Shown here: in pieces, positions 1 to 20,740 of the stretch
Position numbering within the stretch: the first letter of the stretch is position 1
Layout: each line of letters starts with the position of its first letter
Assembly: GCA_018057015.1 (NCBI GenBank)
Contig: JAGPES010000001.1
Span: forward strand, 1 to 43,942
Direction: 5' to 3'
Length of the DNA: 43,942 nucleotides
Source: Pseudomonadales bacterium
GTDB taxonomy: Bacteria; Pseudomonadota; Gammaproteobacteria; Pseudomonadales; UBA5518
Notes under the pieces: generated by a model
What the model saw: the letters and a program-made list of their open reading frames with translations, nothing else
Databases searched by the model: none
What the model was told of the DNA's origin: nothing
Translations under genes and position numbers: made by a program

Positions 1-824
1 AGATCCGGTTCCGGCGCACTGGCCATCGGCGTGCCCGGCTTGGCGCGGAAGTTCTGCACGATCACTTCCTGCAGGTTGCCGTATTCGCGGTGGATCGCGC
101 GCAGCGCCAGCAGCGACTCGACGCGCTCGGTGCGCGTCTCGCCGATACCGATCAGGATGCCGGAGGTGAAGGGCACGCGCGCCTGGCCTGCCAGGCGCAT
201 GGTCCGCAGGCGCACCGACGGCGCCTTGTCGGGCGAACCGTGGTGCGGCATGCCGCGGCCGCACAGCCGCTCGGAGGCCGACTCCAGCATGATGCCCATC
301 GAGGGCGCGAGCGGACGCAGCATCGCGATCTCGCGCTCGTCCATGTTGCCGGCATTGATGTGCGGGAACAGCCCGGTCTCCTCCAGTACCGCGCGCGCCA
401 CGTGCGCGAGATAATCCAGCGTGGTCGCGAACCCCAGCCCGTCCAGCGCCTCGCGCGCGGCGCGGTAGCGCAACTCGGGCTTCTCGCCCAGGGTGAACAG
501 CGCCTCCTTGCAGCCCAGGCGAGCGGCCTCGCGCGCGCTGGCGAGCACCTGGTCCAGCGGCATGTAGGGCGAGTCGATGCGTTTGGGCGTCTGCGCGAAC
601 GTGCAGTAATGGCAGACGTCGCGGCAAAGGTGCGTCAGCGGGATGAACACCTTGCGCGAATAGCTGATGACGTTGCCGTGCGCGGCATCGCGCAGCCCGG
701 CAGCGACCTGCATCAGCGCGGCGGTGTCGTGGATGCCGGCCAGCGCCAGCGCCTGCGCGTCCGACAGACCGTCCGCGCAACGGGCCGCTTCCGCCAGCGC
801 ATCCAGGGGATTCCTGCTCAGCAT
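1..824 (-). CDS. cofG: FO synthase radical-SAM domain, CofG type (stand-alone CofG or N-terminal half of FbiC); runs off the window edge
   Basis: Not in the ORF track because it is open at the window edge. My minus-strand translation from ATG 824..822 gives MLSRNPLDALAEAARCADGLSDAQALALAGIHDTAALMQVAAGLRDAAHGNVISYSRKVFIPLTHLCRDVCHYCTFAQ...GILIGIGETRTERVESLLALRAIHREYGNLQEVIVQNFRAKPGT. Radical-SAM CxxxCxxC motif CRDVCHYC lies at nt 603-626. The gene starts 18 nt downstream of the cofC stop. Confidence 0.85.
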   Translation of the reverse strand, partial: MLSRNPLDALAEAARCADGLSDAQALALAGIHDTAALMQVAAGLRDAAHGNVISYSRKVFIPLTHLCRDVCHYCTFAQTPKRIDSPYMPLDQVLASAREAARLGCKEALFTLGEKPELRYRAAREALDGLGFATTLDYLAHVARAVLEETGLFPHINAGNMDEREIAMLRPLAPSMGIMLESASERLCGRGMPHHGSPDKAPSVRLRTMRLAGQARVPFTSGILIGIGETRTERVESLLALRAIHREYGNLQEVIVQNFRAKPGTPMASAPEPD

Positions 825-842
825 CTGCACGTCGGTACTACC

Positions 843-1556
843 TCAAAAGGTGTGGCCAATGCCCTCGTCGCCACGACGCCGAAGCAGGCGCGTGGTATGG
901 GCTCCGCCGGCATTCTCTGCGCTTTGGCAGATGGCGACAAGCTCCGCCAGGTCGTCGGGATGATCGATGTCCTGCCCCAGACCCGCCCCGTCGTGCTCGG
1001 CCCAGCGCACGCCGGCCGCGCGCGCGGCTTCGTGATGACGCGCGCGACTGCCGGCGCCGAAACGGTACGGCAGCGCATCGGGCGGCGTGCTGAGCAGGCA
1101 ATTGCTGCCCTCGCGGGCGCGGTCGGTGACCAGGGTGGCGAGCGGCGCGCCGCGCGCGCCCAGCGCCGCGAGGTGCGCCTCGATCAGCGCGCGCAGTTCC
1201 GCCGCGCGCGCCAGCGGCAGGTCGGCGTGCATCACCAGCACGTGCTCGGCCCCCTGCGCGCGGACGTGCCCCAGGGCCTCGGTGAGCGCCGCGTTCAGCG
1301 GATCGGCCGCCGCGGGCGCGGGCCGGAACAGTGCCACGCCGTACTCGGCCGCCAGCGCCGCCACGTCCGCGTCGTCGGAAACCAGCACGATGCGCGCCGG
1401 CGCCACCGGCACCGCCTGCAGCGCCTCGATGACGTCGCGGGCCATCGCCTCGACGAGCTCGCGCCGCTGCAGCGCCACCAGTGCGCCGGACAGGCGCTCC
1501 TTGGCGCGGCCCAGGTTCTTCAGCGGCACCAGCACCCACAGCGCGGGGGGGATCAT
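843..1556 (-). CDS. cofC: CofC/FbiD guanylyltransferase of F420 biosynthesis (2-PL, PEP or 3-PG specificity unknown), 237 aa
   Basis: Last 237 codons of track ORF 843..2543, from internal ATG 1556. The sequence MIPPALWVLVPLKNLGRAKERLSG...HVLVMHADLPLARAAELRAL looks like the CofC nucleotidyltransferase fold. The start overlaps the cofD stop as ATGA. The upstream part of the track ORF is Arg/Ala-rich read-through overlapping cofD in another frame. Confidence 0.8.
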   Translation of the reverse strand: MIPPALWVLVPLKNLGRAKERLSGALVALQRRELVEAMARDVIEALQAVPVAPARIVLVSDDADVAALAAEYGVALFRPAPAAADPLNAALTEALGHVRAQGAEHVLVMHADLPLARAAELRALIEAHLAALGARGAPLATLVTDRAREGSNCLLSTPPDALPYRFGAGSRARHHEAARAAGVRWAEHDGAGLGQDIDHPDDLAELVAICQSAENAGGAHTTRLLRRRGDEGIGHTF

Positions 1557-2503
1557 GGACCGAGACTGTCCAGCAGCCCGAGCACGTCGGCGGCGAGGCG
1601 GCGCTTGCTGCCGGCATCCGTCATCACCGTATCGGTCACCAGCACGCGCATGCCCAGCACGCGGATCGCTTCGGCCTGGGCCTCGTCCTCGCGGTCGATC
1701 ACGAAGGCATCGGCAAGCCCGCGGTAGTGGCGCGCGACTTCCAGCGCCGAGACCGGCAGCCCGAGTTCGGCCATCATCTTGGCCGCCGGACCCTTGATCG
1801 CGCGTCCGCCCACGATCGGCGACACCGCGATCACGGGCAGCGCCGCGAGCCGCTCGCGCAGGCCCGGCACGGCCAGCACCGGGTCGACGCTGAGCCAGGG
1901 ATTCGAGGGGCAGATCACCGCGACCGGCCGCGTCGATGCCTCGAGCCATTCGCCGATGGCGGGCGCCGGCCGCGCCGCCGCCGCGTTGTCGAAACGCACG
2001 CCACGCACCAGCGGCTCGCAGCGCTCGCGCACGAAATACGCCTGGAAGGCGAAGCTGCCGCGATCGGTGTCGACCAGCGTGCGCACCGGCGCATCGCTCA
2101 TCGGCACGACCGCATGACGCACGCCGAGCGCCGCGCCGAGGCGCGCCGTCGCCTCGCTCAGGGTGAGCCCCGAGCGCAGCAGCGCGCTGCGCTGCAGGTG
2201 CGTGGCGAGATCGCGGTCGCCGAGGCGGAACCAGTCCGGGCCCCCGAGCGCGCCCAGCGCCCCGATGCACTGCCAGGTCTCGCCCGCGAGGCCCCAGCCG
2301 CGCACCGGGTCGGCGCGGCCCGCCAGTGTGTACAACAGCGTGTCGATGTCCGGGCTGATGTGCAGCCCGAGGTGCTCGAAGTCGTCGCCGGTGTTGGCCA
2401 CGATCAGCAGCTCGGCCGGATCGAGCAGCGCCGCGAGGCCGAAGGCCAGCTTGGCGCCGCCCACGCCGCCCGAGATCGCGAGGACGCGGCGCGCGCTGTT
2501 CAC
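1553..2503 (-). CDS. cofD: 2-phospho-L-lactate transferase CofD/FbiA, 316 aa
   Basis: ORF 1553..2503 reads VLAISGGVGGAKLAFGL...IVANTGDDFEHLGLHISPDIDTLLYTLAG..., typical CofD motifs. GTG start 2503 overlaps the cofE TGA as GTGA. Confidence 0.9.
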   Translation of the reverse strand: MNSARRVLAISGGVGGAKLAFGLAALLDPAELLIVANTGDDFEHLGLHISPDIDTLLYTLAGRADPVRGWGLAGETWQCIGALGALGGPDWFRLGDRDLATHLQRSALLRSGLTLSEATARLGAALGVRHAVVPMSDAPVRTLVDTDRGSFAFQAYFVRERCEPLVRGVRFDNAAAARPAPAIGEWLEASTRPVAVICPSNPWLSVDPVLAVPGLRERLAALPVIAVSPIVGGRAIKGPAAKMMAELGLPVSALEVARHYRGLADAFVIDREDEAQAEAIRVLGMRVLVTDTVMTDAGSKRRLAADVLGLLDSLGP

Positions 2504-3261
2504 TGGCGGAACAGGTCGCGCTCGCGCGCGCGCAGCAGGGCACCCATCCCCTCGCCGGAGGGCTCGAGCTTCGCGCCGCGCACCAGCACCGCCGGGATCG
2601 CCTCGTCGGCCTGCCCCATCACGAAGGAAGCGGCGGCCGCCAGTTCGTCGGCCACCGCGATCTCGGTGATCTCCAGCTTGCGCCCGAACAGGTCCGGCGC
2701 GCCGATGCGGTTCACCACCGGCTTGAAACCGGCGCAGCCGATCGCGAAGCCGATGATGCCGTTGCGCCAGGCGCGTCCGGCGCTGTCGTTGATGATCACG
2801 CTGACGTCGCAGCCGGTGTCGCGCCGTGCGCGTTCGCGCAATTGCCGCGCGCTGGCATCGGGATCGAGCGGCAACAGCAGCACCTTGTCCGGGTCCGCCA
2901 CGTTGGAGCGGTCCACGCCCGCGTTGGCGTGCACGTAGCCGAGACGGTGCTCGACAATCAGCGCACCCGGGCGCTGGCGCATCACCTCGCGCGATTCCGA
3001 GAGGATCACCTCGACCAGCCGCGGGTCCTTGTCGGCGGGCCCGGCGAGCGCCAGCGCGCGTGCCGAAGGCACCACCTCGTCGAGGCGGACGTAGCGGTTC
3101 TCGGCCTTGGAGACGATCTTCTGCGCCACCACCAGCAGGTCGCCGTCACGCATGCCGCCCGCGCAACGCGCCGCCGCCGCGAACAGCATCGCGGCGATGT
3201 CGTCCCCGGGCTCCACCAGCGGCAGCCCGGTCAGCGGGACCAGCGCGAGCGTGCTACTCAC
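2500..3261 (-). CDS. cofE: F420-0:gamma-glutamyl ligase CofE, single-domain, 253 aa
   Basis: ORF 2500..3261 reads GDLLVVAQKIVSKAENRYV...HANAGVDRSNV...VIINDSAGRAWRNG, which are CofE signatures. GTG start 3261 overlaps the fno stop by 8 nt. At 253 aa it has no FbiB-type C-terminal nitroreductase domain. Confidence 0.9.
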   Translation of the reverse strand: MSSTLALVPLTGLPLVEPGDDIAAMLFAAAARCAGGMRDGDLLVVAQKIVSKAENRYVRLDEVVPSARALALAGPADKDPRLVEVILSESREVMRQRPGALIVEHRLGYVHANAGVDRSNVADPDKVLLLPLDPDASARQLRERARRDTGCDVSVIINDSAGRAWRNGIIGFAIGCAGFKPVVNRIGAPDLFGRKLEITEIAVADELAAAASFVMGQADEAIPAVLVRGAKLEPSGEGMGALLRARERDLFRQ

Positions 3262-3946
3262 CGGCCGAATCGAGGCCGGTGATGCGGATGCCCGCGTGGC
3301 ACTTGAAGGCGCGGTTGATGTTGATGATCACCGAGGTCAGCGCCTCGGCGGCGGCGGCGTTCGCGATCGGGCCGGCGTGGAAGCCGCGCATGCCGCAGGC
3401 TTCGACCAGGCCGATCACCGCGGCGCGCGCGTCCTTGTCGTTGCCCGAGACCAGCACGTCGCACTCGATGCCGTGGCCTTCCTGCAGGTGATGGGCGGCG
3501 ACGTTCTGGAACGCCGACACGACCTTGACCGAGTCGCCGAGCAGTTGCTGCGCGGCCATGCCCGCGGAACCTTCGGGGGGCATCTGCACCGTGCCCACCT
3601 TGGGCGGCATCAGCGGCACCGTCACGTCGACCAGTATCTTGCCGTCCAGCGCCGGGCGCACGTGCTCGAGCGTGCTCTTCTGGTGCGCGAACGGAACGGT
3701 CAGCACCACGATGTCGGCGGCGCGCGCCGCATCGAGGTTTTCCATGGCGGCCACGTCGAGCTGCGTCGCACCCCACTCCGCCATGACCTGCCTGAGTTCC
3801 GCGAGCGCGGCCTCGGCCTTCTCCAGCGTCCGCGAGCCGATGATCACCGCGTGCCCGGCCTGGGTCCAGCGCCGAACCAGGCCCGTGCCCAGCGCGCCGG
3901 TGCCGCCCAGTATCGCAATCCTCTTCGAACCTGCCGTCTCGCTCAT
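3254..3946 (-). CDS. npdG: NADPH-dependent F420 reductase (Fno/NpdG), 230 aa
   Basis: ORF 3254..3946 has Rossmann motif IAILGGTGALGTGL and a C-terminal part (VSAFQNVAAHHL...GPIANAAAAEALTSVIININ) typical of the NpdG/Fno family. It is the first gene of the F420 operon. Confidence 0.85.
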   Translation of the reverse strand: MSETAGSKRIAILGGTGALGTGLVRRWTQAGHAVIIGSRTLEKAEAALAELRQVMAEWGATQLDVAAMENLDAARAADIVVLTVPFAHQKSTLEHVRPALDGKILVDVTVPLMPPKVGTVQMPPEGSAGMAAQQLLGDSVKVVSAFQNVAAHHLQEGHGIECDVLVSGNDKDARAAVIGLVEACGMRGFHAGPIANAAAAEALTSVIININRAFKCHAGIRITGLDSAGE

Positions 3947-4006
3947 TCAACCTCCAGGGTGTCCGTGTATCGAATAGCCGCACCGCTGCGCCGTGCACCG
4001 GGGTGG

Positions 4007-4028
4007 CTATAATGGCGCGCCATTCTAG
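4007..4028. promoter_or_regulatory. 22-bp near-perfect palindrome carrying two opposed -10-like hexamers in the fno / SDR divergent intergenic region
   Basis: CTATAATGGCG|CGCCATTCTAG has 10 of 11 arm positions complementary. TATAAT lies on the plus strand at 4008-4013 and TAGAAT on the minus strand at 4027-4022. It sits 45 bp upstream of the SDR ATG and 61 bp upstream of the fno ATG. Confidence 0.35.
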
Positions 4029-4072
4029 TCGCAAGCAGCGGCACAAGTGAATTCTCGACCGCGGAGGGTGAA

Positions 4073-4846
4073 ATGCAGGACAAGCTGGACATGCAGGGCA
4101 AGGTTGTGATCGTCACCGGGGGCGCCAAGGGCGTGGGCGCCGGCATCAGCCAGTGTTTTCTCGAGGCTGGCGCGAGCGTGGCCGTCGTGGGGCGCACGCC
4201 GCCCGAGCGCCTGCCCGCCTGCGGCGCCAACGAGGCGAGCTTCTGGCAGGCCGACGTGCGCGACTACGACCAGCTCAGCGCCTGCACCGACGCCATCGTC
4301 GCCCGCTACGGGCGCATCGACGTGCTGGTCAACAATGCCGGCGGAGCTCCGAACGCCGACGCCGCGACCGCCTCGCCGCGCTTCTCGGAGTCGATCATCC
4401 GGCTGAACCTGCTGGCCCCGCTCAATTTCTCGCAGCTCGCCAACCGCGTGATGCAGCAACAGCAAAGCGGCGGCACCATCATCAACATCGCCAGCGTGAG
4501 CGCGATCCGGCCCTCGCCCGGAACGGCCGCCTACGGCGCGGCGAAGGCGGGCCTGGTGAACCTGTGCACCTCGCTCGCCGTGGAATGGGCGCCGAAGGTG
4601 CGCGTGATCGCGGTGATCTCGGGGCTGGTGGTGACCGAGCAGGCGCACCTGCACTACGGTGACGACGCGGGCATCGCGGCGGTGGGCCGCACCATTCCCC
4701 TCGGCCGCATGGCCGTGCCGGCGGATATCGGCAATGTGTGCCTGTTCCTGGCCTCGCCGCTGGCGAGCTACATCTCGGGCAGCGCGATCACGGTGCACGG
4801 GGGGGGCGAGGCGCCGGCGTTCCTCACGGCGTCGAACGCCGGCTGA
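4073..4846 (+). CDS. SDR family oxidoreductase, 257 aa
   Basis: ORF 4073..4846 has TGGAKGVG, NNAG and YGAAK motifs. RBS GGAGGGTG precedes the ATG. Confidence 0.85.
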   Translation: MQDKLDMQGKVVIVTGGAKGVGAGISQCFLEAGASVAVVGRTPPERLPACGANEASFWQADVRDYDQLSACTDAIVARYGRIDVLVNNAGGAPNADAATASPRFSESIIRLNLLAPLNFSQLANRVMQQQQSGGTIINIASVSAIRPSPGTAAYGAAKAGLVNLCTSLAVEWAPKVRVIAVISGLVVTEQAHLHYGDDAGIAAVGRTIPLGRMAVPADIGNVCLFLASPLASYISGSAITVHGGGEAPAFLTASNAG

Positions 4847-4855
4847 GCGCGAGCC

Positions 4856-5425
4856 TCAGCGCAGTCTCTTCGGCGGCCGGCCGCGGCGAGCCGGCGTTGT
4901 GGCCGGCTTGCGCGTAGCGGGCTTGCGCGAAGCGGGCTTCGCGGCGGCGCGAGTCGCCACCTTCCTGGCGCCGGCAGGCTTGTCACGGGTCTTCGGCTCT
5001 GCCCTGCCCTTGCGCAACGACAGGCCAGACACCTTCTGCGCCAGCGCATTCACCTGGCGCGCCAGCGCATCCAGGCGCGTGTGCACGGCATCGTCGACGC
5101 CCATGCGCTCGCGCACGCGCCCGATCATTTCCTCCACCGTCCGCGTGTTGCTGCCGGCCGCTTCGCTGATGCGCTCGCGCGCCTCGCTGATCCTGTCCTT
5201 CGCCTCGCTGATGCGTTCCTTCAGCGCCTCGCGGCTGTGATCCTCGATCGACTGCCCCTTGCTCACCAGGTCGTGGAAGAACTTCGAGGCTTCCTGGCTC
5301 GCCTTGTCGATCTGCCCGTGCGCGTCCTCGACGCTCTTGCCGTAGGCGCCGAGCCCGGCCAGCCAGATCTTGCGCGCCACGGTCTCGCCGCTCTCGGCCG
5401 GTTTGCGCTTGCGTGTACGTGCCAT
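4856..5425 (-). CDS. phaF: Phasin (PHA granule-associated protein, TIGR01837-like) with a histone-H1/AT-hook-like basic C-terminal tail; PhaF-like, 189 aa
   Basis: ORF 4856..5425 has the N-terminal phasin signature KIWLAGLGAYGKSVEDA...SKFFHDLVSKG. Three 7-aa repeats follow (KERISEA KDRISEA RERISEA). The tail is KPAGARKVATRAAAKPASRKPATRKPATTPARRGRPPKRLR. RBS is GGAGGA. Confidence 0.8.
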   Translation of the reverse strand: MARTRKRKPAESGETVARKIWLAGLGAYGKSVEDAHGQIDKASQEASKFFHDLVSKGQSIEDHSREALKERISEAKDRISEARERISEAAGSNTRTVEEMIGRVRERMGVDDAVHTRLDALARQVNALAQKVSGLSLRKGRAEPKTRDKPAGARKVATRAAAKPASRKPATRKPATTPARRGRPPKRLR

Positions 5426-5536
5426 CGCTCAATCCTCCGTTGTGTGCCCGGCCCCGTCGCCGCGGCCGCTGCATTTTCCGACCCCGGCATGCTAACGGCT
5501 GGAATTGGAAACGACATACTAGTAACGTTCGGACAA

Positions 5537-6211
5537 ATGAAAACACGCGACCGCATCATCCACGTCAGCCTCGAGTTGTTCAACCGCGAGGGTGAGCCCA
5601 ATGTCACCACGGTGGACATAGCCAACGAGCTAGACATCAGCCCCGGCAACCTCTACTACCACTTCAAGGGCAAGGAAGAACTGGTGCGGGAGCTGTTCGA
5701 GCGCTTCTACGAGCAGTTCAACGTGATCCTGCGCGCGCCCGTGCAGAACCCGCTGCGCATGGAGGACAACTGGTTCTACCTGGTGGTCGTGTTCGAGCAC
5801 ATGCACGCCTACCGCTTCCTGTACGGCAACATCTCGCTGATCCTGCAGCGTTACGAGCAGATCCAGCGCCCGTTCCGGCGCCTGATCCACATGAAGCAGG
5901 ATGCCGCGCGTGCCATCTGCTTGCAGCTGCGCAAGGCCGGCATCATGGAGATCGACGACGGGAGCGTCGACATGCTGGCGCGCAGCATCGCGCTCACGAT
6001 CACCTACTGGTTCAACTTCGACAGGCTGCTGGGGGACCGTCCGGGCCAGGACGAGGACCTGATCCACGACGGAGTGCTGCAGGTTCTGTCGCTGATCGCG
6101 CCCCACCTCGGCACGATGCAGCAGGAATTCATGGACACCGCGCACGCGATCCACTCGCGCCTCGGCCGCGCCGCGGCGCAGGCAACGCGCCCCAGGGGAG
6201 GCAAGAGATGA
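5537..6211 (+). CDS. TetR/AcrR family transcriptional regulator (PhaD-like by position), 224 aa
   Basis: Internal ATG 5537 of track ORF 5081..6211. The sequence MKTRDRIIHVSLELFNREGEPNVTTVDIANELDISPGNLYYHFKGKEEL is a TetR helix-turn-helix. The gene is divergent from the phasin gene. The upstream part of the track ORF is antisense to the phasin. Confidence 0.85.
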   Translation: MKTRDRIIHVSLELFNREGEPNVTTVDIANELDISPGNLYYHFKGKEELVRELFERFYEQFNVILRAPVQNPLRMEDNWFYLVVVFEHMHAYRFLYGNISLILQRYEQIQRPFRRLIHMKQDAARAICLQLRKAGIMEIDDGSVDMLARSIALTITYWFNFDRLLGDRPGQDEDLIHDGVLQVLSLIAPHLGTMQQEFMDTAHAIHSRLGRAAAQATRPRGGKR

Positions 6212-6915
6212 ACCGCACCGCTGCCCTTTGCCGCGCCACGGCCGCCCTGTGCGTGCTGCTGCTGTTCGCCGCTCCGCTCGCCACGAAATCCGGCCTGGTG
6301 TCGTGGAAGCTCGGGCTGCCGCTCACCGCGCTGGCCTTTCTCGGCGGCGCCGTTCTGCTGCTCGTCTCGCTGGTGCTGCTGGCGCTGCCGGCGTGGCGCG
6401 CCGTGCGCGCACCGCTCGCGGCGAGCGCCGTGCTGGCCGCGCTGCCCGCACTCGCCGGCGTCGCCGTGATCGCGCCCGGGATCGGGCTGCCGGCGATCCA
6501 CGACGTCAGCACCGATATCGCCGATCCGCCACCGTTCGTGGCACTGCTGGCCCTGCGCGGCCCCGGCGCCAACCCGCTGGTGCGCTCGCCCGAGGTCGAT
6601 GCCGCGCAACGCGCCGCCTGGCCCGGGCTGGTCGCGCTGGACTCGCCGCTGCCGCCGGCGCAGGCGTTCGAGCGCGCCGCCGCAACCGCGCGCGAGCTCG
6701 GCTGGCAGGTTCACGCAGAAGATGCGGCGGCCGGCCTGATCGAGGCCAGCGCGAGCACCTTCTGGTTCGGGTTCGTCGACGACGTCGTGATCCGCGTGCG
6801 AGCGCACGCCGGCGGCTCGCGCATCGACCTGCGCTCGGTGAGCCGCGTCGGCCAGGGCGACCTCGGCGCCAACGCCAGGCGCATCGCGCGCTTCATCGAG
6901 CGCTTCCCCCCCTAG
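6208..6915 (+). CDS. DUF1499 domain membrane protein, 235 aa
   Basis: ORF 6208..6915 has N-terminal hydrophobic segments, then FWFGFVDDVVIRV...RIDLRSVSRVGQGDLGANARRI, typical of DUF1499. The start overlaps the TetR stop as ATGA. Confidence 0.7.
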   Translation: MNRTAALCRATAALCVLLLFAAPLATKSGLVSWKLGLPLTALAFLGGAVLLLVSLVLLALPAWRAVRAPLAASAVLAALPALAGVAVIAPGIGLPAIHDVSTDIADPPPFVALLALRGPGANPLVRSPEVDAAQRAAWPGLVALDSPLPPAQAFERAAATARELGWQVHAEDAAAGLIEASASTFWFGFVDDVVIRVRAHAGGSRIDLRSVSRVGQGDLGANARRIARFIERFPP

Positions 6916-18325: not shown

Positions 18326-19801
18326 TCACGCCAGGCTGAAGCGTCCGGCCGCCACGCGCACCTCGCGCCCGCAGCACTCCTCGCTCTCCAGCCGGTCCAT
18401 CAGCGCCTGGTCCGGGGTATTGGCCAGGGTGCGCGTCCCGTCGGGCTGATCGAGCAGCGCCACGCCGCAGACGCGCGCATCGTTGTGGTACATCACCGTG
18501 TAGCCGCAGATGCGCGCCACGCCGTCCGCGGGCGGAACCACCGTGCGTGGCGGCGATTCCGCGGCGACCTCCGCGCTCACGTCGGCGAACACGAAGCCGC
18601 GCGGACCCGGATCGGCCGACCACACGCCGAAGCCCTGCTTGGTCAGGTACCCCGACACCGAGCTCACCAGCCCGCTCGCGCCGGGCTTCTCGCGCAGCAG
18701 TTCCGCCATGCGCGCGGTGGCCTGCAGCACGTAGTTGTTCAGCGGTCCGCCTGCGAAGGGCATGCCGCCGGTCACGGTCCAGTCGCGATCGGCCGGAATG
18801 CCGAGTTCCGTGGCGTAGAGTTCGACCGCGATCGGGAAGCAGGAATAGAGCTCGACGAAGTCGAGCGCGCCGGGCGCGAGGCCCGTGAGTTCCAGCGCGC
18901 GCTGTCCGGCGATGCGCGCCCCGGGCAGGCGATGCAACTCGGGGCGCTCGGACAGGGCGAGCATGTGGTTCGATTCCGTGCTGGCGCGCGGAAACACCCA
19001 GCGATGGCGCGCAATGCCGAGCGCCTCGGCGCGCGCCGCCGAGCACAACAGCAGCGCCGCGGCCTGGTCCACGTTCCACGAGGTGTTGTGCAGCCTGGTG
19101 TACGGGAAGGCCAGCATGCGGTTGCGCGGCGTGGCATCACGGATCTCGGCGGGCGCGACGCGCTCGCGCTTCCAGGCGTGCGGGTTGGCCGCGGCGATCT
19201 CGCTGAAGCGGCTGTACATCGCCGCCATGCGGTCGCGGTGCTCGGCCACGCCCAGGCCCTGTGCGGCGCGAAAGGCGCTCTCCACCAGCGCGTAGTAGCC
19301 CACCGGCATCATGCCGAGACCGGAGTCGATTTCCAGCGGCAGTTGCAGTTCCTCCTGCGGCGTGAGTACCTCGTCCGGCGCCTCGTCGAAGGGCGTCTCG
19401 GCGGCCTCGGTGCCCGCGATCTGCGCCTGCAGCGCGCGAAAGCGCGCCTCGCCACCGACCACTATCGCGGTCTCGATCTCCCCGGCCGCGATGCGCGCGC
19501 AGGCATCGCCGATCAGCGTCTGCTGCAGGATGCCGACCTTCGCGTAGACGGTGCGCGCGGCCTCCGCGCCGATCGCGCGCGCGATCATCCGCGCCGGGTC
19601 GGCGTAGCCCCAGAGCCCCTGCGGCACGCTGATCAGCGCGGCCTGCGACGGCAACAGCGGCGCGCCACAGTCGGCGCCGGCGGCGCGCACGGCGTCGATC
19701 ATCAGCTGTATCGCCTCGCGTGCCTTCGCGGGATCCTTTTCCTTCTGCTCGACGATGCCGATGCCCACGAGCACCGGCGTGCGTGGATCGATTCCCTTCA
19801 T
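18326..19801 (-). CDS. Thiolase-like protein with extra C-terminal domain (TLP1-like); catalytic Cys/His apparently missing, 491 aa
   Basis: Internal ATG 19801 (RBS AGGGAG) of track ORF 18326..19846. The sequence looks thiolase-fold (IVVGGEARF, VDQAAALLLCS, FVELYSCFP, TGGMPFAGGPLNNY). By-eye alignment puts Gly where the nucleophilic Cys should be (YAKVG vs VNKVC), GGP where GHP is expected, and no C-terminal CxG. About 100 extra residues follow the thiolase core. Confidence 0.7.
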   Translation of the reverse strand: MKGIDPRTPVLVGIGIVEQKEKDPAKAREAIQLMIDAVRAAGADCGAPLLPSQAALISVPQGLWGYADPARMIARAIGAEAARTVYAKVGILQQTLIGDACARIAAGEIETAIVVGGEARFRALQAQIAGTEAAETPFDEAPDEVLTPQEELQLPLEIDSGLGMMPVGYYALVESAFRAAQGLGVAEHRDRMAAMYSRFSEIAAANPHAWKRERVAPAEIRDATPRNRMLAFPYTRLHNTSWNVDQAAALLLCSAARAEALGIARHRWVFPRASTESNHMLALSERPELHRLPGARIAGQRALELTGLAPGALDFVELYSCFPIAVELYATELGIPADRDWTVTGGMPFAGGPLNNYVLQATARMAELLREKPGASGLVSSVSGYLTKQGFGVWSADPGPRGFVFADVSAEVAAESPPRTVVPPADGVARICGYTVMYHNDARVCGVALLDQPDGTRTLANTPDQALMDRLESEECCGREVRVAAGRFSLA

Positions 19802-19846: not shown

Positions 19847-20740
19847 TCAGAGCGCGGCGACGATGCGGTCGCGATACCCTGCCACCAGCGCCCGCAGCCC
19901 CGCGGGGGTGGTATCGCCGGCCTCGTAGGCGGCAATGATCAGGCGGTTCGCGCCGGCATCGCGGTAGGCACGCACGAGCCCCAGGTCCCAGGTCGCGCCG
20001 TGGCGCCAGCTGGCGGGCCACACCGTGACCGAGAAGCCCTCGAGGCTGCGCCCCGCGCCCGCCGCGGTGGCGCGGATCGTCGCCAGGCGCGCCGCGAGGT
20101 CATCGGGGGAGATCACGTAGGGGTAGAAGCCCTCGCCGCGCAGGCCGGCACGACGCGCCGCCGCCTCCGAGCTGCCGCCGATGTAGAACGGAATGCCGCC
20201 CGGCTGCACCGGCTTGGTGTCGCAGAACACCCGCTCGAAGCGCACGAAGTCGCCGCGGAACGTGGCCGGGTCGTCGCGCCACAGCGCGCGCATTGCGTCG
20301 AGGCATTCGTCCAGGCGCCGCCCGCGAGCGGCGTAGGGCACGCCCACCGCCTCGTATTCCTCCTTCTGCCAGCCGATGCCGATGCCGACCTGCAGGCGAC
20401 CGCCCGAGAGCGCATCGAGCGTGGCCAGGCGCTTGGCCAGCATCGCGGCGCTGTGCTGCGGACCGATCAGCACCCCGGTGGCGAGCCGCAGGCGAGCGGT
20501 GCAGGCGGCGGCGAAGCTCAGCCACTCGAGCGGATCCGGCATCATGGTGTCGGGGACCACCGGCGCGCGGCCGTCCGCGGAATACTCGTAGCGCGGCTCG
20601 TAGTCCTCGGCCATGATCACGTGCTCGGGCATCCACACCGATTCGGCGCCCTCCTCTTCCAGCATCGCGAGGAAGCTGCGCACCCAGCGCGGGTCGGTGC
20701 TGAAACGCCGGTCGCAGATCGGGATCACGCCGAAATGCAT
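19847..20740 (-). CDS. LLM-class (luciferase-like) probable F420-dependent oxidoreductase, Rv2161c/TIGR03619-like, 297 aa
   Basis: Internal ATG 20740 (RBS GAGGAGAGG) of track ORF 19847..20794. The sequence reads MHFGVIP...EEEGAESVWMPEHV...GGRLQVGIGIGWQKEEYEAVGVPYAARGRRLDECLDAMRALW...FYIGGSS. Confidence 0.75.
   Translation of the reverse strand: MHFGVIPICDRRFSTDPRWVRSFLAMLEEEGAESVWMPEHVIMAEDYEPRYEYSADGRAPVVPDTMMPDPLEWLSFAAACTARLRLATGVLIGPQHSAAMLAKRLATLDALSGGRLQVGIGIGWQKEEYEAVGVPYAARGRRLDECLDAMRALWRDDPATFRGDFVRFERVFCDTKPVQPGGIPFYIGGSSEAAARRAGLRGEGFYPYVISPDDLAARLATIRATAAGAGRSLEGFSVTVWPASWRHGATWDLGLVRAYRDAGANRLIIAAYEAGDTTPAGLRALVAGYRDRIVAAL

Follow-up and report, generated by a model that had tools for sequence, protein, structure and literature searches.

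A predicted operon for coenzyme F420 biosynthesis and reduction, accompanied by many candidate client enzymes, in an uncultured gammaproteobacterium

Coenzyme F420 genes occupy one end of GenBank contig JAGPES010000001.1, a stretch of 43,942 nucleotides that was analysed as a whole and is called the window here. The window is an entire contig (C54) of a fragmented metagenome-assembled genome (MAG) from an uncultured gammaproteobacterium (587 contigs, 3.8 Mb, 88% complete, 4.2% contamination, ~69% G+C). Positions 3-3946 are taken up by five minus-strand open reading frames, fno, cofE, cofD, cofC and the 5’ part of fbiC, all of which are open and translationally coupled (Table 1). Genes were assigned by their scores against curated NCBIfam cut-offs (in bits) with Pfam as a second source, and the two agree for all five genes. 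A preliminary description of this DNA had recognised five consecutive minus-strand F420 genes; their coordinates and families are borne out, each gene scoring above its curated cut-off. The same holds for the tight packing it had reported: fno and cofE overlap by 8 nt (3254-3261), cofE and cofD by 4 nt (GTGA, 2500-2503), and cofD and cofC by 4 nt (ATGA, 1553-1556), while the gap between cofC and fbiC measures the reported 18 nt if translation starts at the ATG at 824 and 12 nt if it starts at the GTG at 830. The start of fno is preceded by a GGAGG ribosome-binding site 8 nt before the ATG at 3946, and the previously noted radical-SAM motif CRDVCHYC was found again at 603-626.

Two of the gene products deserve comment. 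CofE is a single-domain protein of 253 amino acids that aligns to the FbiB model NF009810 (449 positions) over positions 11-243 only and comes without a nitroreductase domain. For CofD, confusion with a YvcK-type paralogue had been named as a possible pitfall; the protein passes the F420 equivalog TIGR01819, which is its sole NCBIfam match at E <= 0.001, and does not match the YvcK-type model.

Table 1. Features of the window in and around the predicted F420 operon. Scores are given in bits, followed by the curated cut-off where there is one.
Feature	Position	Strand	Support
fno (npdG), leading gene of the operon, predicted NADPH-dependent F420 reductase	3254-3946	-	TIGR01915 equivalog, 200.9 vs 149.8; Pfam F420_oxidored
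cofE, predicted F420-0:gamma-glutamyl ligase	2500-3261	-	TIGR01916, 275.7 vs 180.65; Pfam F420_ligase, 254 bits
cofD, predicted 2-phospho-L-lactate (or analogue) transferase	1553-2503	-	TIGR01819, 284.5 vs 257.45
cofC, predicted guanylyltransferase activating the side-chain precursor	843-1556	-	TIGR03552, 135.1 vs 105
fbiC, 5’ part (CofG domain), radical-SAM, cut by the contig end	3-830	-	TIGR03550, 314.1 vs 213.35
Promoter-like site TTCACT-18-TAGAAT upstream of fno	4022-4051	-	sigma-70 consensus match only, in the 126-nt divergent intergenic region
SDR oxidoreductase, PRK07856 type, divergent from fno	4073-4846	+	NF005893, 385.4 vs 255
F420-type LLM oxidoreductase	19847-20740	-	TIGR03619 (Rv2161c family), 244.9 vs 166.9

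The fifth gene had been taken for cofG. A CofG domain is present, but the gene is not a stand-alone cofG, and we rejected that assignment: it is matched best by NF006687, the model of bifunctional CofGH/FbiC proteins (386 bits, model positions 33-292 of 849), and it continues on a second contig, C455. The first 192 nt of C455 align in reverse complement with the window’s first 192 nt (97.9% identity, 4 mismatches), and the reading frame is the same across the junction, with a 63-amino-acid overlap containing 3 substitutions. The missing CofH, which the preliminary description had advised to look for beyond the window edge, was located by a profile search of the organism’s own genome as a domain on C455 (TIGR03551, 481.9 vs 374.1). 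Joined, FbiC measures ~826 amino acids and has both CxxxCxxC motifs intact, the second reading CYFKCQFC. FO synthase is thus complete in this genome, with the CofG domain in the window and the CofH domain on C455, and fbiC is fused and unbroken in genomes of the same genus. The assembly break inside the gene is probably due to strain variation; the 97.9% overlap of the two contig ends (positions 1-192 of each) suggests two co-assembled strains.

Behind fbiC, C455 carries a further F420-type LLM gene (TIGR03619, 197 vs 166.9) followed by a SnoaL-like gene. G011 and G005, two near-complete genomes from the genus, have the full layout fno-cofE-cofD-cofC-fbiC-LLM-SnoaL unbroken, and a third (G003) has the five core genes with the same flank. 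We considered whether the LLM and SnoaL-like genes are conserved parts of the biosynthetic operon and rejected this: they are present in the window’s genome, G011 and G005, but do not stand behind fbiC in G003 or in other families. Pairs of an F420-type LLM and a small SnoaL-like (NTF2-fold) protein occur four times in the genome, including the one at C455 1891-3271 and others on contigs C135 and C413, and may represent a recurring two-protein module.

The operon is well conserved among relatives. We sampled 61 genomes of the order, 16 from the genus of the window and 45 from other genera, the latter comprising one genus of the window’s own family and one from each of 44 other families. CofD was detected in 16/16 genomes of the genus and in 16/45 other genera (16/44 other families sampled), which gives 17 CofD-positive and 29 CofD-negative genera. 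It was not found in the only other genus of the window’s family (G016, 90% complete), where both client families described below were not found either. The flank of the operon (a divergent SDR, a phasin-like gene, a TetR gene and acyl-CoA dehydrogenases) is syntenic with three genomes of the same genus at 58-86% identity, which argues against a binning artefact. Within the genus, Fno is 83-91% and CofE 76-88% identical; CofC, at 52-65%, evolves much faster than any other gene of the operon. In one genome of the genus (G006:C21:194409-195306) CofD is matched by two neighbouring segments (model positions 2-219 and 220-298) that lie in different reading frames, which points to either a frameshift or a mistake in sequencing.

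A scan of named genomes, from which close relatives of the window’s organism are excluded, returned 546 CofD relatives. The best 80, which are 50-61% identical, belong to Gammaproteobacteria, Alphaproteobacteria, Burkholderiales, Acidobacteriota and Chloroflexota; their gammaproteobacterial carriers are Halieaceae, Halioglobus, Spongiibacteraceae, OM182, K189A, Azotimanducaceae and MAGs labelled "Pseudomonadales". Most of the proteobacterial and acidobacterial loci mapped share the order fno-cofE-cofD-cofC-fbiC; more than 40 named loci from Gammaproteobacteria (Halieaceae and Spongiibacteraceae among them), Alphaproteobacteria and Acidobacteriota show it, with fno in the leading position. The rarity implied by the preliminary description was therefore overrated, since the operon is widespread and well conserved. 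One contig in this collection (L008, CAMCBY010000091.1) is labelled ‘MAG: Klebsiella pneumoniae’ and carries cofE-cofD-cofC-fbiC and an LLM gene with no fno, its CofD being 58% identical; the label looks wrong.

In a tree of concatenated Fno, CofE and CofD (68 rows), the genus is monophyletic with support 100; it groups with one MAG of Spongiibacteraceae and a further family of the order, next to Halieaceae. With the exception of a single MAG of Woeseiaceae, all Gammaproteobacteria lie to one side of a branch, and only 2 changes are needed to explain their placement. Across phyla the tree is mixed, with Acidobacteriota and Alphaproteobacteria interleaving, a pattern in keeping with the older transfers that have been described. 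The gammaproteobacterial context proposed earlier is thereby upheld, as the operon is embedded in the tree among those of Spongiibacteraceae, Halieaceae and Pseudomonadales MAGs, and the phylogenetic check for horizontal transfer that had been recommended gives no support for recent import: the genus is monophyletic and nested among Gammaproteobacteria of its own order. Judged from these sequence relationships, the operon has long belonged to the order, where it has been passed on mostly by vertical descent and lost repeatedly.

The genome is rich in putative F420 clients. The LLM oxidoreductase at 19847-20740, singled out earlier as a candidate client, passes the F420-type model TIGR03619 and is one of ~20 predicted clients above cut-off (11 TIGR03619, one TIGR03617, one TIGR03857, six TIGR00026 and one TIGR03618). 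These correspond to 13 F420-type LLMs, six Ddn-like FDOR-A proteins (TIGR00026, plus two fragments) and one PPOX-class protein (TIGR03618). Both TIGR00026 and TIGR03619 occur in the same 29 of the order’s 61 genomes, all of which are CofD-positive; at the level of genera they are present in 14/17 CofD-positive and 0/29 CofD-negative ones (Fisher p = 2.8e-9). Three CofD-positive genomes (G018, G023 and G031) have neither. Copy numbers of TIGR03619 reach 6-18 per genome in the genus, compared with 1-9 in other families, and FDOR-A proteins of TIGR00026 number 2-8 per genome in the genus. Genes found beside the LLMs encode an enoyl-CoA hydratase, a family III CoA-transferase, an acyl-CoA dehydrogenase, an aldehyde dehydrogenase, an OYE-type reductase and, four times, a SnoaL-like protein, so that the lipid-metabolic setting proposed for the LLM in the window fits these acyl-CoA-type neighbours. 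In the window itself, the LLM gene is followed at 18326-19774 by a thiolase-like gene that matches the PRK08257-type ‘acetyl-CoA acetyltransferase’ model far below its cut-off (362 vs 757 bits).

The genome-wide search for FDOR, LLM and Fgd families that had been suggested thus yielded many LLM and FDOR members and no Fgd equivalog, the best score of the genome’s LLMs on TIGR03554 being 71 bits vs 420. Because no Fgd equivalog was found and the fno-first order is conserved, it is plausible that NADPH keeps F420 reduced through Fno, as the preliminary description had suggested from the position of fno. Fno has also been reported as the only known F420 reducer of Betaproteobacteria (PMC8498797).

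Upstream of fno, the 126-nt divergent intergenic region contains the single sigma-70-like match in positions 1-6300 of the window, where 0.4 would be expected by chance. The SDR gene on its other side lies next to fno, divergently transcribed, within the genus, and loci of Halieaceae, Halioglobus and Spongiibacteraceae show the same pairing (65-86% identity over the genus and these loci), which is also kept in seven other families of the order. The SDR was detected in 10/17 CofD-positive and 4/29 CofD-negative genera (p = 0.002), and in most of the CofD-positive ones it stands beside fno. Given its presence in four CofD-negative genera and its absence from seven CofD-positive ones, the SDR is not supported as an obligatory F420 component; on this distribution, it is associated with the operon, though not exclusive to it.

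Taken together, these data indicate that the operon is very probably functional for F420 biosynthesis and reduction and belongs to the common non-actinobacterial type. In the pathway that we envisage, FbiC, with its fused CofG and CofH radical-SAM domains, would make the deazaflavin FO; CofC would activate a three-carbon phospho-acid with GTP, CofD would transfer the activated phospho-acid to FO, and the single-domain CofE would add the glutamate tail. Fno would then load hydride from NADPH onto F420, and the resulting F420H2 could supply the ~20 LLM and FDOR-type reductases, many of them encoded beside acyl-CoA and lipid catabolic genes.

CofC, which would activate the phospho-acid, aligns to PDB structures 7P97, 6BWG and 2I5E. 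Its Gly167 occupies the position of S162 in the Mycetohabitans enzyme (7P97) and G163 in that of M. tuberculosis (6BWG), Ser170 lies at the conserved carboxylate-binding serine, and the helper position H145 of Mycetohabitans is a glutamate. A serine or threonine at the position of Mycetohabitans S162 marks CofC proteins that accept 3-phosphoglycerate (3-PG) (PMC8764529). Formation of the Mycetohabitans-type derivative 3PG-F420 in place of classical F420 could be argued from its production in another proteobacterial class with a single-domain CofE and without a dehydro-F420 reductase (PMC8498797), and from the fact that the best-scoring solved structure for our CofC is the 3-PG enzyme 7P97. However, that match is weak (60 bits) and reflects bacterial ancestry rather than specificity, and because the diagnostic residue is Gly167, as in the enzymes that use 2-phospholactate (2-PL) or phosphoenolpyruvate (PEP), and the H145 position is Glu (PMC8764529), we predict classical F420 and consider 3PG-F420 highly unlikely. 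Between 2-PL and PEP, the sequence of a CofC protein does not reveal a preference (PMC8764529); in vitro, 2-PL is the preferred substrate of the enzymes of Paracoccus and Oligotropha, though the assay does not settle which substrate serves in vivo (PMC8764529). The choice is informed by the reductase that a PEP route calls for. A dehydro-F420-0 reductase (the FbiB C-terminal domain or FbiE) was not detected in the genome, where the best TIGR03553 score is 28 bits, and eight near-complete relatives score at most 55 bits, with similarly weak matches in control genomes without F420; as a positive control, an FbiE-like nitroreductase of Chloroflexota scores 144 bits. Because no such reductase was detected, 2-PL is probably the side-chain precursor. 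Of the traits expected of an archaeal-type 2-PL route, a single-domain CofE and a non-3PG CofC are present; FO synthase is fused here, unlike in archaea.

The 2-PL-type route is the most economical reading; its alternative is a PEP route in which CofC and CofD make dehydro-F420-0 that is then saturated by an unrecognised reductase non-homologous to FbiB-C and FbiE, such as the divergent SDR or another enzyme. Gram-negative CofC enzymes turn over PEP at 3.5-30% in vitro, in vitro assays do not tell whether 2-PL or PEP is used in the living cell (PMC8764529), a bacterial source of 2-PL is not known, and the SDR is kept beside fno in the genus and in seven other families and is enriched in CofD-positive genera. 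Its occurrence in four genera without CofD and its absence from seven with CofD speak against a strict pathway component, and the comparison with the Chloroflexota operon, which keeps its FbiE-like gene, looks like a step lost and not replaced. We therefore regard the PEP route as possible rather than probable. A more radical view would hold that the genes are relics, that the organism makes FO only (for example as a photolyase antenna), or that the contig is a contaminant of the bin. The fragmented assembly with its 4.2% contamination, the position of the operon at a contig end and the three CofD-positive genomes of the order without detected clients could all be cited in its favour, yet the frames are open and translationally coupled, the flank is syntenic within the genus, and the operon is present in every genome of the genus. 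FO alone would leave cofC, cofD and cofE without purpose, as they are needed only beyond FO, and the 6-18 copies of TIGR03619 per genome accompany the operon throughout the genus. The probability of this view is, in our estimate, close to negligible.

Several points weigh against a functional F420 system as proposed here. On paper the side-chain route is incomplete, with neither an FbiB C-terminal domain nor an FbiE reductase, and no source of 2-PL is known in any bacterium, the 2-PL kinase being unidentified in any organism (PMC8498797). The two contigs over which fbiC is split disagree at 4 of the 192 nt they share, and the halves of the gene may stem from slightly different strains. The F420 dependence ascribed to TIGR03619 and TIGR00026 members derives from phylogenetic profiling, and F420 itself is predicted from the genes in this organism, an uncultured MAG of 88% completeness, and in its named relatives. 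Fno and Fgd were the reducers looked for, and Fno alone turned up, a result that does not extend to the FrhB/FdhB type, for which no search was made. Finally, the Alphaproteobacteria tested so far gave only trace amounts of F420 (PMC8498797).

With these points in mind, we tentatively propose a wider interpretation: gammaproteobacteria of this Cellvibrionales-like kind could be heavy F420 users that make classical F420 by a route undescribed in bacteria, either a true 2-PL route with an unidentified 2-PL-forming enzyme or a PEP route with a reductase unrelated to FbiB-C and FbiE. They would regenerate F420H2 only by Fno, from NADPH, and employ it as a low-potential hydride donor in the catabolism of acyl-CoA, lipids or hydrophobic compounds. 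If true, this interpretation would assign F420 a definite function in proteobacterial physiology.

The type of gene cluster described here is known, standard and common, and automatic pipelines would annotate the operon; what is new is a further lineage with an unusually rich set of predicted clients. According to a review from 2021, F420 genes are variably distributed in Proteobacteria, where FbiC is fused, and biochemical work has demonstrated F420 production in Alpha- and Betaproteobacteria, its role there being unknown; Gammaproteobacteria are unmentioned in the text of that review (PMC8498797). Our literature search for F420 in Gammaproteobacteria, Halieaceae or Cellvibrionales yielded no specific reports. 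The use of F420 by Proteobacteria, and the building of its side chain without the FbiB reductase domain, are open questions of the field (PMC8498797). The genus of the window offers a clean comparative case for both: a vertically conserved operon, no recognisable dehydro-F420 reductase, a non-3PG CofC, Fno as the one reducer recovered of the two looked for, and an expanded set of F420-type reductases, which occur only where the operon is present and of which many lie beside beta-oxidation-like genes. Cultured relatives, such as members of Halieaceae and Spongiibacteraceae, are therefore reasonable organisms in which to address the two questions.

Comparison with established systems helps to place the operon. 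In Chloroflexota of the Anaerolineae/Thermomicrobium type, a homologous fno-cofE...cofD-cofC arrangement encodes Fno, CofE and CofD proteins that are 42-57% identical to those of the window (tblastn) and fall into the same tree. These bacteria insert a PPOX-class gene and a stand-alone FbiE-like nitroreductase gene between cofE and cofD, as seen in an Anaerolinea MAG (L005 5002-5989; TIGR03618, 77.5 bits, and TIGR03553, 144 bits), and encode FO synthesis elsewhere, whereas in the gammaproteobacterial operon fbiC is included and FbiE is missing. The FbiC/FbiD/FbiA/FbiB system of Mycobacterium shares the fused FbiC, the homologous pairs CofC/FbiD and CofD/FbiA, and a wealth of LLM and Ddn-like FDOR-A clients. 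It differs in that CofE of the window lacks the C-terminal nitroreductase domain that reduces dehydro-F420-0, and in that the genes studied here form one compact operon headed by fno, with no Fgd found in the genome.

Among Proteobacteria, Mycetohabitans (Paraburkholderia) rhizoxinica, the producer of 3PG-F420, resembles our organism in its single-domain CofE, the lack of a dehydro-F420 reductase and Fno as the only known reducer. Its diagnostic CofC serine is replaced by glycine here, so that activation of 3-PG is not expected, and M. rhizoxinica is without canonical F420 clients (PMC8498797), whereas many are predicted in the present genome. The closest parallels are the clusters of Paracoccus denitrificans and Oligotropha carboxidovorans (Ney et al. 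2017, cited through the review PMC8498797), which share the fused FbiC, CofC, CofD, single-domain CofE and Fno. They likewise have no FbiB nitroreductase domain, a CofC of the 2-PL/PEP type and a role that is unknown, and the same question arises over their side-chain route. The host in our case is a gammaproteobacterium (GTDB Pseudomonadales, near Spongiibacteraceae and Halieaceae), and while the alphaproteobacterial producers are said to have Fgd in addition to Fno (PMC8498797), no Fgd equivalog was found here. The Alphaproteobacteria tested contained F420 in trace amounts only (PMC8498797), in contrast to which the genome described here encodes ~20 predicted client enzymes.

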